Under the pieces are notes generated by a model, which searched no databases, was not told where the DNA came from, and was given only the letters and a program-made list of their open reading frames with translations. From contig CM022667.1 in NCBI GenBank assembly GCA_012295275.1, forward strand, positions 11,966,001 through 12,030,000: 64,000 nt of DNA. Reading direction: 5' to 3'. The position numbers and the translations under genes were made by a program. Source of the stretch: Chrysomallon squamiferum. Lineage: Eukaryota > Animalia > Mollusca. Positions 18,923-28,258 of this stretch are shown piece after piece; position 1 is the first letter of the stretch; every line of letters begins with the position of its first letter.

Positions 18923-19337
18923 ATGAAGCTGTTGTTTTTCCTGACGTTTCTGGTTTTGTCTGTGTCGGTTATCTGTCAAAGATGTGAAAAACGAATTAGA
19001 AAAAGGGAAAATAGAAACGAAAGATGAATTGGAAATCGACCAGAAAGGGGCGGGAGACACGGGGCAGACCAAAGAAGGGGAGGTTACTGCAGATAATGGA
19101 AAAGGGGAGGTAACGTCAGAGAATACCGAAGAGAATACAACTGCAGATAAAGGTGAAGGGGAGTTAACTGCAGATAAAGTTGAAGGGGAGGTAACTGCAG
19201 ATAAAGCCGAAGGGGAAGTAGCTTCAGATAGCAGTGAAGCTGAGACTCCCGGTGATAAAGAAAAAGGGGCCATGACTCCTGAGGTTCAGTCGGCTCCACC
19301 CAAATCTGGAGCTGAAGCCGAACCCAAAATGACAAAC
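18923..19337 (+). CDS. Poly-knottin coding exon 1: signal peptide plus acidic spacer (frame discontinuity near 18965-18980)
   Basis: ATG 18923 gives [18 protein letters not shown]; the +1 frame continues [26 protein letters not shown]...EPKMTN; donor AAC|GTAAGT. Length 415 nt = 3n+1. Confidence 0.7.
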
Positions 19338-25300: not shown

Positions 25301-28258
25301 TCATTAAGTGGCTAGGGAATGTTTTATCTCTCCCATCATTAATTCAGGGGGAAATCGTTTAATTTTATTTGTAAGTAATAAATGAAAATTAATAGTTTTT
25401 AATTCCTGGTATATACATACTATAATAGATTATTAATATGTATCCGTTGATAATTCGAAACTGATAAAATTTTGTCATTAAATGACAGTGACATAGATTT
25501 TCGATAATTCGAATAAAAATCTAAAGGTATTCTGCATACTTATTATTATTATTATTACACCCTTGTATAACAACAAAAGAATACAGTTTACAAATATCGG
25601 GCAACGCTATTTATCTACTGTGACGTCTTCACTGTTAAGGCATACCGCTTTGTTCTAATGTGGCTTCTAGTCTTGTCAAAGAAACATATACGCGATGACG
25701 TCACGACTCTGTCTGTGAAAGGGTAAAATGACGAAGTTAGCATGTTTTGGAACACTATTATTTCATTATTATACTTTGTTATCAGCAATGACAGTTCACC
25801 CCCACACACACACACAGACAGACAGACACACAGACACACAAAAAAAAAAAAAAAAAAGAATAAACAAACAAACAAATTTATTGAAAACAAAGTATAAGGA
25901 ATTTTATTAGAGCATTTGTTGCTTGCTTTGTTGGTTAAAATTCAGGAAAATATCTGAAGCATCGTTATTCATAATCTTTTAATAATGTAATTAAGATATT
26001 TAAGCTAGCAGCATAATATAATATAATATAATGTAATATAATATAATATAATATAATATAATATAATATAATATAATATAATATAATATAATATAATATG
26101 TGTTTCAGTGTATTCCTCTGTACCAACAATGTCAACCTAACAACAATCTTCAGAGATGTTGTAACAATGGTCAGTGCCAGCAACAACCAGGTGGATTTCA
26201 GTACACCTGTCAGTCAGGTGGTGGACAGGTAAAAATCTGAAATGAAAATATATAAAGCTCTGTATAATGTGTATACGACTATTTATTTATTTATTTATTT
26301 ATTTATTTATTTATTTGTTTATTTATTTTCAGTGTATTCCCCTGAACCAACAATGTCAACCTAACAACAATCTTCAGAGATGTTGTGACAATGGTCAGTG
26401 CCAACAACAACCAGGTGGATTTCAGTACACCTGTCAAGCAGGTATTGGACAGGTAAAATTATAAATTAATCTTTCACAATCAACAGAACTAAAATCAATA
26501 TGAAGAAATTTACAAAAATAACCGTTAAACCGGCAATATTATTATTATTATTATTATTATTATTATTATTATTATTATTATTTCAGTGTATTCCTCTGAA
26601 CCAACAATGTCAGCCTAACAACAATCTTCAGAGATGTTGTGACAATGGTCAGTGCCAACAACAACCAGGTGGATTTCAGTACACCTGTCAAGCAGGTATT
26701 GGACAGGTAAAATTATAATATCTTTCAGATCATCGTCATCATCATTTTTTAAAATTATTATTGTTGTTATTATCATTGCTATTTATTTGTGTTGTTCTTA
26801 ATAATAGTATTGCTGTTTTAGTGTATTCCTCTGTACCAACAATGCCAACCTAACAACAATCTTCAGAGATGTTGTAACAATGGTCAGTGCCAACAACAAC
26901 CAGGTGGATTTCAATACACCTGTCAGCCAGGTGGTGGACAGGTAAAAATCTTAGATCTTTAATAAAAATGCACAAAAAAATGTTTTATTTGAAATGTTAC
27001 GTAAGCTTTGATAAGCATATAGGTCCAGAATGTATAATAAGTATTTGCGAAATTTCTACCTTTGTAGGTATATTTGTCTGCTTTTTGTTAAGCTATAGAC
27101 ATTATATTTTGAATTTCCAGTAATAATTCATAACAGGTAGTTTACGTTTAAAACAATATCATTCTTTTTTTTTTATCCTCTCCCTTTCTCTCTTATTTCG
27201 TTATATCTTTCTTTATTTACAGTGCATACCTCTAAACCAACAATGTCAACCTAACAACAATCTTCAGAGATGTTGTAACAATGGTCAGTGCCAACAACAA
27301 CCAGGTGGATTTCAGTACACCTGTCAAGCAGGTATTGGACAGGTAAACATCTTTGATCTTTTACAAAAATATCCCATATATGTTCTGATGGAGCGATGTC
27401 TAGCGAGCAAGCTGGCCACAGAAACACACTGATGTTTGTTGTTTCCAAGGAAGTTTTGTACCAGTCTGAGTCTACAGGTCTAGTGGCATTGTCGTGCTGA
27501 TAGAATTAATGTCATCATATGGCTGCCATCGGAAAATATCCCTGTAATGTTGAAGAGTCATGATCCATTGTTGTTGTGGTTGTTTTATTATTATTAATGC
27601 TGATGCTATGCTTGCTGTTAGTATTGTTTGTTAATGTTGTTGTTGTTATCATTATTATTGACGTTGTTGTAGTGATCAGTGTTGTTGTTGTTGTTGTTGT
27701 TGTTGTTGTTGTTATTATTATTATTATTATTATTATTATTATTATTATTATTATTATTATTATTTCAGTGTATTCCTCTGAACCAACAATGTCAACCTAA
27801 CAACAATCTTCAGAGATGTTGTAACAATGGTCAGTGCCAGCAACAACCAGGTGGATTTCAGTTCACCTGTCAGAGAGAACGGGTAAAATTATCATCTCTT
27901 TTTCATGATGACGATGATGATCGTTATCGTCGTCATCATCACTTTCATTAACACCACCACCACCACCACTACCACCACCGTCACCACCATCATGAGCAAT
28001 AACAATTATTATTATTATTATTATTATTATTATTATTATTGTTATTATTTACAGTGTATTCCGCTTGGCTCACTCTGTCAGTTAGGAGACATATGTTGTC
28101 AAGGCACAGAATGTCGGACTAACTTTCTTCACCTGCGTACGTGTCAGTATATCGGCGGGGGATTTTCTGCTGATGACGAAAGAAAAAACGGAGCACAAAA
28201 TGGAGTTAACAAAAACGGAGCAGAAACAGCCGACAAAGAAACTATTGGAGTAAAGTGA
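18923..28258 (+). CDS. Secreted multidomain cysteine-rich protein with 16 tandem ICK/knottin-type (C-C-CC-C-C) modules, ~795 aa, 17 coding exons
   Basis: Signal-like [16 protein letters not shown], then an acidic repeat spacer, then 16 exons each starting with a Cys codon directly after AG and encoding C-x6-C-x(5-10)-CC-x4-C-x(4-10)-C. All introns are GT-AG and phase 0. TGA at 28256-28258 is followed by ATTAAA and a GT-rich tract. Confidence 0.88.
19074..19235 (+). repeat. Coding tandem repeat, 27 nt / 9 aa x ~6 (consensus EGEVTADKx)
   Basis: [54 protein letters not shown]; recurring ACTGCAGATAA. Confidence 0.85.
19883..19975 (+). CDS. Knot module 1 (unique)
   Basis: TATAG|TGC...[39 protein letters not shown]; 93 nt. 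Confidence 0.88.
20905..21027 (+). CDS. Knot module 2 (unique)
   Basis: AATAG|TGT...[49 protein letters not shown]; 123 nt. Confidence 0.85.
21176..21295 (+). CDS. Knot module 3 (repeat R1)
   Basis: 120 nt; [44 protein letters not shown] borders. Confidence 0.9.
21413..21451 (+). pseudogene. Truncated repeat exon (first 10 codons only)
   Basis: TTTACAG|TGTATACCTCTGAACCAACAATGTCAGCCT then TTC AAA TGA; no donor site. Confidence 0.8.
21766..21885 (+). CDS. Knot module 4 (R2)
   Basis: 120 nt; [40 protein letters not shown]. Confidence 0.9.
22425..22544 (+). CDS. Knot module 5 (R3)
   Basis: 120 nt; [40 protein letters not shown]. Confidence 0.9.
22971..23090 (+). CDS. Knot module 6 (R4)
   Basis: 120 nt; ends [12 protein letters not shown] borders. 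Confidence 0.9.
23493..23612 (+). CDS. Knot module 7 (R5)
   Basis: 120 nt; [40 protein letters not shown]. Confidence 0.9.
24081..24200 (+). CDS. Knot module 8 (R6)
   Basis: 120 nt; ends [12 protein letters not shown] borders. Confidence 0.9.
24548..24667 (+). CDS. Knot module 9 (R7)
   Basis: 120 nt; CCDNG variant, ends TCQAGIGQ. Confidence 0.9.
26109..26228 (+). CDS. Knot module 10 (R8)
   Basis: 120 nt; CIPLY..., ends TCQSGGGQ. Confidence 0.9.
26333..26452 (+). CDS. Knot module 11 (R9)
   Basis: 120 nt; CCDNG variant, ends TCQAGIGQ. Confidence 0.9.
26587..26706 (+). CDS. Knot module 12 (R10)
   Basis: 120 nt; CCDNG variant, ends TCQAGIGQ. Confidence 0.9.
26822..26941 (+). CDS. Knot module 13 (R11)
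   Basis: 120 nt; CIPLY..., ends TCQPGGGQ. Confidence 0.9.
27223..27342 (+). CDS. Knot module 14 (R12)
   Basis: 120 nt; ends TCQAGIGQ. Confidence 0.9.
27365..27510 (-). mobile_element. Decayed Tc1/mariner transposase fragment in an intron
   Basis: Minus strand reads YQHDNATRP...[26 protein letters not shown], matching the Tc1 catalytic-domain motifs (F)QQDNA.PH and WP..SPDL.PIE..W. Confidence 0.8.
27769..27882 (+). CDS. Knot module 15 (R13, basic linker)
   Basis: 114 nt; [47 protein letters not shown]. Confidence 0.88.
28055..28258 (+). CDS. Knot module 16 (unique) plus C-terminal tail; terminal exon
   Basis: [77 protein letters not shown]. Confidence 0.87.
   Translation, partial: CIPLGSLCQLGDICCQGTECRTNFLHLRTCQYIGGGFSADDERKNGAQNGVNKNGAETADKETIGVK

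Follow-up and report, generated by a model that had tools for sequence, protein, structure and literature searches.

The exon array at the locus

Within a 64,000-nucleotide (nt) stretch of genomic DNA from Chrysomallon squamiferum, the scaly-foot snail of deep-sea vents (Peltospiridae; assembly GCA_012295275.1, contig CM022667.1, positions 11,966,001 to 12,030,000, forward strand; hereafter the window, with positions counted from its first letter), we describe a gene that reads as a signal-peptide-like start and an acidic spacer followed by 16 exons, each encoding one six-cysteine unit with the spacing of an inhibitor cystine knot (ICK, or knottin). A six-frame scan of the window placed 16 such units on the + strand between 19883 and 28258, and a stricter pattern (C-x6-C-x5/8/10-CC-x4-C-x4/9/10-C) occurred 16 times in the window and not once in any of 30 local shuffles. 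The features of the gene are as follows.

18923–19337, +: first coding exon, with signal-peptide-like start, acidic spacer carrying a 9-residue repeat (TADKxEGEx, also in the published gene model CsqKR_Scaf61_47.4) and a phase-0 GTAAGT donor; frame break at about 18975–19025
19883–19975, +: knot exon K1, spacing 6-5-0-4-4, divergent; Pfam Conotoxin_I2 E=0.002, under the cut-off
20905–21027, +: knot exon K2, 6-10-0-4-10, divergent, acidic; modelled with AlphaFold2, with fold matches
21176–21295, +: knot exon R1, 6-8-0-4-10
21413–21442, +: truncated 14th R copy, the first 10 codons after the acceptor, without a donor
21766–21885, +: knot exon R2; multi-copy contigs in DNA run X1
22425–22544, +: knot exon R3, modelled
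22971–23090, +: knot exon R4
23493–23612, +: knot exon R5
24081–24200, +: knot exon R6
24548–24667, +: knot exon R7
26109–26228, +: knot exon R8
26333–26452, +: knot exon R9
26587–26706, +: knot exon R10
26822–26941, +: knot exon R11
27223–27342, +: knot exon R12
27769–27882, +: knot exon R13, with the short linker QRER
28055–28258, +: terminal exon with knot K16 (6-5-0-4-9), a polar tail containing RK and the stop TGA, and ATTAAA at 28303; Pfam Toxin_12 E=0.0037–0.017, under the cut-off

All 16 knot exons begin with a Cys codon directly after a TAG or CAG acceptor, have a length divisible by 3 in phase 0 and carry neither a stop nor a lost Cys, and the 15 internal ones all close at a GTA donor. 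The thirteen R exons share the spacing 6-8-0-4-10, differ pairwise at 2–13 of 102 nt and average 93.7% identity in nucleotides and 95.3% in amino acids (aa) over a 34-residue core, with K1, K2 and K16 divergent from them. Coding length comes to about 796 codons in total, with 96 Cys within the knot exons. The preliminary description, made from the sequence alone, had proposed one knot per exon over 16 exons with 13 near-identical modules, and both counts hold. It had also proposed that the linkers lack dibasic sites, which stands for those between knots (14 of 15 have neither Lys nor Arg), with the reservations that the last, QRER, with its single Arg residues, could be cleaved and that the C-terminal tail contains RK.

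Satellite sequence or chance open reading frames (ORFs) as the source of the units were ruled out by the shuffles and by the selection analysis below, and a collapsed or inflated assembly repeat was ruled out by copies standing 2–13 nt apart with mostly distinct introns. Contigs over R2 in X1 reach about 8.6 times single-copy depth and the same R words occur 6–9 times in the window, a rough sign that the R array is not an assembly artefact.

Through shared repeats, the locus matches the published scaly-foot snail gene model CsqKR_Scaf61_47.4, tabulated in 2020 among low-complexity proteins in the supplement of PMC7142155, with the R repeat at residues 156–537 (382 aa, period 40, 7.38 copies), a TADKAEGEL repeat at 61–86 and an (RE)19 run at 614–651. 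The repeat itself is therefore not new, its tabulation there being only as that of a low-complexity repeat protein. That model was made by MAKER from mixed transcript and ab initio evidence (PMC7142155; statements from cited papers are limited, here and below, to the available parts of their texts), and the published listing gives it no Pomacea or Mizuhopecten partner. In the open-access literature we found no text naming the protein a knottin, and a full-text search there with two R-module peptide motifs matched no paper. The main text of a scaly-foot proteomics study names neither knottin nor conotoxin, as far as its available parts go, and four of its supplementary files hold no R motifs; those files do not use the CsqKR identifier (ID) scheme and so are uninformative on presence in shell or scale (PMC11871041).

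Selection on the modules and growth of the array

We assessed selection on the 12 full-length R exons, excluding R13, whose end differs. Among them the proportions of synonymous and nonsynonymous differences were 0.24 (pS) and 0.035 (pN), giving a dN/dS of 0.12; third positions made up 16 of 26 variable columns, and 16 of 27 distinct variants were synonymous against 19% expected (binomial p ~5e-6, an approximate value, the copies being non-independent). Given this dN/dS, selection, beyond recent copying, keeps the copies alike. Ungapped identity between R copies, about 0.9 within the exon, is down to 0.3–0.45 from 10–20 nt into the introns, microsatellite indels adding to the drop. The X1 contig over K2 (from a run about 2–3% diverged over the adjoining gene CCDC102A) lists 28 differences across roughly 455 nt of intron and two in the 123-nt exon, both synonymous, with 3 of its 33 differences not listed. 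The knottin locus is a real, selectively conserved gene of unusual architecture.

Traces of how the array grew remain in its introns. Those after R3, R4 and R5 are 76–77% alike, part of the R1–R2 intron is 85% like the R7–R8 intron, and the truncated R copy at 21413–21442 has an intact acceptor and then runs into intron sequence 85% like that ahead of R8, making it a relic of unequal crossing-over. Within the R exons, 46 of 78 informative site pairs fail the four-gamete test. These sequence patterns fit growth by tandem duplication of exon plus intron through unequal crossing-over, accompanied by exchange between the copies through recombination or conversion.

Predicted fold and family membership

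The cysteine frame C-C-CC-C-C with knottin-sized loops is present in all 16 knot exons, and AlphaFold predicted for R3 a module with a hairpin (22–25/32–35) and no helix at a predicted local distance difference test score (pLDDT) of 83.2; K2 modelled alone gave the same layout, again without helix, at 82.8. In VIA-align the matches of both were mostly knottins, the best reaching Z 4.6 for R3 (6xyh, root-mean-square deviation (rmsd) 1.3, 35 aligned) and Z 4.2 for K2 (2mfs, rmsd 1.8, 34 aligned). Foldseek returned no match at E<=0.001, all values being at least 0.62, with a spider ICK (2h1z, probability 0.85) and then the beetle antifungal knottin Alo-3 as best rows. By sequence, the best PDB match of the R profile was the double-ICK Xt3a (E=1.3e-5) and that of a single R module was Alo-3 (1q3j, E=0.064), while the first ESM Atlas matches (0.88 and 0.86) were ICK clusters under the 0.9 lead level. 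The R and K2 modules are, on these models, likely cystine knots, and the knottin-like fold of the preliminary description is supported as a prediction (pLDDT about 83 for both). EGF repeats were ruled out, matches to Notch and fibrillin having E of at least 0.21 and lacking the first cysteines.

Searches for relatives of the modules returned little. All scanned modules fell under the gathering cut-offs of Pfam Conotoxin, Conotoxin_I2, Toxin_7, Toxin_12 and Toxin_35, a test weakened by short single domains; word-index searches gave no homologue of the R module or of the acidic spacer (0 of 2107 candidates), and a metagenome scan for a 25-nt R motif gave 0 loci. A profile search over 1.84 billion representatives yielded four matches at E<=0.001, of which three are tandem-knot proteins (P0121/P0125, P0122 and P0123) while the fourth, P0124 from Amphiura, carries EGF repeats. 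The three carry tandem ICK-like repeats as the snail gene does, but of 4–5 units and with the cysteine frame alone in common with its modules. P0121/P0125 and P0123, five-knot proteins from metagenome or Logan assemblies, score above Pfam Toxin_12 cut-offs.

Tandem homologous disulfide-rich domains at high Cys density, the feature of the SCREPs (a named class of tandem cysteine-rich secreted proteins; PMC6262176, PMC9885460), are present here, the R cores being 95% identical. SCREPs and the multi-ICK venom peptides (DkTx, Hi1a/Hc1a, Xt3a) share with the snail gene tandem C-C-CC-C-C knot frames, short linkers and (presumed for the snail protein) secretion, but are venom components of two, rarely three, knots; characterised multi-ICKs carry two (PMC9950431), the Hc1a family spans single to triple forms that arose inside one exon, and a 2026 study describes exon shuffling as unreported for the origin of bivalent toxins (PMC13172734).

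Closer in setting is Mytilus mCRP-I, from a non-venomous mollusc, with a signal, an acidic pro-region and tandem six-Cys arrays in a predicted ‘pearl necklace’ (PMC4558851, PMC10138031). Yet its 2–5 arrays sit in one final exon, with exon duplication explicitly excluded, against 16 arrays at one per exon here; it is cationic, hypervariable and positively selected (PMC4558851), whereas the snail modules are near-neutral to acidic and under purifying selection; and it has a dibasic pro-site where the snail acidic spacer has none. The preliminary description had treated CRP-I as an established knot, which does not hold: synthetic Mytilus CRP-I peptides with a comparable frame adopted the pairing 1-2/3-4/5-6 (PMC4558851), a case in which cysteine spacing by itself would mislead, and support for the knot comes from later AlphaFold work that favoured it (PMC10138031).

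The lepidopteran X-tox proteins (Spod-11-tox, a ‘defensin rosary’) are secreted, many-domain, cysteine-rich chains with no conserved cleavage sites (PMC2728511) and are encoded, like the snail protein, with each cysteine-rich domain in its own exon (cited in PMC4558851), but have a defensin (CS-alpha-beta) fold and imperfect repeats and are found in insects only, whereas the snail models have no helix. X-tox is the best analogue for how the snail protein may work. Alo-3, as the best single-sequence PDB match and second Foldseek row, is a single domain, and its weak match does not imply homology. Sixteen knots lie above the usual range, published cases having 2–5 and database matches 4–5, and in open-access titles and abstracts we found no ICK chain longer than 16. 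The gene stands out in valency, the highest we found, but not in kind, SCREPs and exon-per-domain rosaries being known.

The first exon, read evidence and neighbouring sequence

The first coding exon opens with a signal-like start of 18 residues (hydropathy peak 3.0) and continues into the acidic spacer, in which 33 of 122 residues are Asp or Glu (isoelectric point (pI) 4.3) and which has no dibasic site and ends without Arg or Lys. An AG at 18910–18911 preceded by a pyrimidine tract suggests a further untranslated exon upstream of 18923. The two N-terminal elements of the preliminary description are thus both in exon 1, though out of frame with each other in this assembly. As a control, CCDC102A (8386–15052, –) departs from the frame of its Gigantopelta aegis orthologue at two points, about 14745–14747 and about 11790, the first of which is present neither in DNA run X1 nor in RNA run X2; the assembly therefore has single-base errors in coding exons, which makes assembly error the likeliest cause of the exon-1 break.

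X1 covers CCDC102A and the array from 20450 onward, with no contig listed over about 18000–20450, where the knottin gene has its 5′ portion. Over exon 1 and K1 (88% and 80% likeness) none is listed, a gap that proves nothing and may reflect either filtering or a 5′ haplotype that is divergent or absent. RNA runs X2–X4 gave only short repeat pieces at 18600–22170, with X2 covering CCDC102A, and are uninformative on expression.

CCDC102A has its best match in the vent snail Gigantopelta aegis (93% across the query, where Haliotis reaches 73%), with 88–97% identity in conserved and 58–74% in variable exons. At 62950–63957 (–), a long ORF with no Pfam match shares a 215-residue spacing of landmarks with the next published model, CsqKR_Scaf61_47.12. 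That model is given as enriched 2.1-fold in mantle and bears the annotation ‘RNA-binding 25-’, a label that probably derives from RE microsatellite read-through. The KPKIWSISSIM motif of the ORF we take to resemble the ‘IRO box’ of Iroquois/TALE homeobox proteins. At 46515–47475 lies an AT-rich tandem repeat of about 900 nt with several frames open, minisatellite-like in character.

A proposed multivalent binder and its competitors

We favour a secreted, intact, multivalent binder that would cross-link or agglutinate a polysaccharide-type ligand, a reading that, ligand and tissue included, we put at an even chance. Under this reading, the 16 one-domain exons would splice into one secreted protein of about 800 residues, the R1–R13 chain would stay uncleaved with its knottin beads joined, and each bead would bind weakly through a Gln/Asn/Tyr/Phe surface, the weak contacts being multiplied into avidity on a repeating extracellular ligand. 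The chain might thereby cross-link or agglutinate chitin, mucus or a microbial glycan in foot mucus, in haemolymph, or in a tissue or stage so far unprofiled. R3 has 17 Gln/Asn among 40 residues and one basic residue (an Arg), lacks Trp and carries a Phe-x-Tyr pair within its predicted hairpin, and net charge is +0.3 for R3 and –0.7 for R7. With uniform copies under purifying selection, repeated binding of a repeating ligand fits better than an arms race. There is precedent in bivalent ICKs, which gain avidity (PMC6262176, PMC9950431), and in the 11-domain Spod-11-tox, a secreted chain that releases no active single domains (PMC2728511).

Several observations weigh against the multivalent binder. 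All VIA-align Z scores are below 5, with IGFBP and colipase-type folds within about 1 Z of the knottins, and the signal-like start and acidic spacer lie in different frames in this assembly (break at about 18975–19025). The published model CsqKR_Scaf61_47.4 is shorter than our reading, with about 12 residues fewer ahead of the acidic repeat, and its (RE)19 run appears to be read-through into the GA microsatellite at 28918, so that the model is no proof of splicing or of a transcript. Its ID does not occur among the genes published as highly expressed in the scale epithelium, mantle, oesophageal gland or gill (the high-expression files described in the publication include no foot list), an absence that also weighs against a role in armour or symbiont organ. 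X-tox is cut into smaller pieces despite having no conserved cleavage sites (PMC2728511), so missing dibasic sites are no proof of an intact chain. We infer polysaccharide binding from surface chemistry and repeat count, neither of which names a ligand. Among the module matches there are no chitin- or carbohydrate-binding Pfam families, and among the 50 fold matches listed no such folds but tachystatins, absences that exclude nothing.

The competitor that fares best, and is still unlikely, is a polyprotein cut at unusual sites (the Gln/Gly linkers, QRER) into single knottins, with the 13 copies raising the dose of one defensive peptide. Like copies under purifying selection fit such dose amplification, QRER and the tail RK could be processed, cleavage has been proposed for multi-MgCRP-I (PMC4558851) and X-tox is processed in haemocytes (PMC2728511); set against this are the 14 of 15 inter-knot linkers free of Lys and Arg and modules that are near-neutral where CRP-I peptides are cationic. 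More doubtful is a role in the structural matrix of shell, scale, periostracum or operculum, in which the acidic repeat would handle mineral ions while the knots cross-link chitin or protein. The low-complexity spacer with its pI of 4.3 suits that role, and PMC7142155 ties repetitive low-complexity proteins, among which it tabulates CsqKR_Scaf61_47.4, to the mantle, but the ID is not in the scale-epithelium or mantle high-expression lists.

That the gene was recently broken, as a frameshift allele or pseudogene whose exons record past selection only, we consider improbable: the exon-1 frame break, the truncated R copy and the ID missing from four tissue lists speak for it, but the CCDC102A break missing from X1 and X2 points to assembly indel errors in coding exons, and the 16 knot exons are without exception intact. 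A toxin acting multivalently on ion channels or receptors of predators or parasites, in the manner of DkTx, Hi1a and Xt3a, is very improbable even though venom ICKs make up most of the top matches in sequence and fold (Xt3a by profile, and the top fold rows), for those matches rest on the common cysteine frame with all Pfam toxin scores under cut-off, the R modules lack the cationic, Trp-rich surfaces typical of ICK toxins, selection on them is purifying rather than diversifying, and the snail is nourished through endosymbionts and has, to our knowledge, no venom gland.

Significance

The snail gene is a variant of the multi-knottin/SCREP class, extreme in valency and built by another route, and not a new kind. 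What is new is the reaching of 16 knots by exon duplication, known multi-knot proteins having 2–5, within one exon where genes have been studied. The gene also marks a blind spot, SCREP mining ending at 500 aa and the table of the genome paper calling the protein ‘low complexity’ only: the ScrepYard pipeline discards proteins above 500 aa (PMC6262176, PMC9885460), so the snail protein would be missed.

Beyond the multivalent binder we allow a more specific and rather unlikely picture, in which this exon-duplicated, selection-uniform polymer of 16 knottins would act as an antibody- or lectin-like agglutinin that binds or sorts surface bacteria, its count of modules differing from one individual or vent population to another. 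As high-avidity ligands, multivalent knottins are much sought after. Here an intron-driven route to 16 knots is found in a symbiont-dependent snail, with selection keeping the copies alike and not diversifying them, and the gene would offer a natural test case for how avidity scales and for roles of the knottin fold outside toxins.

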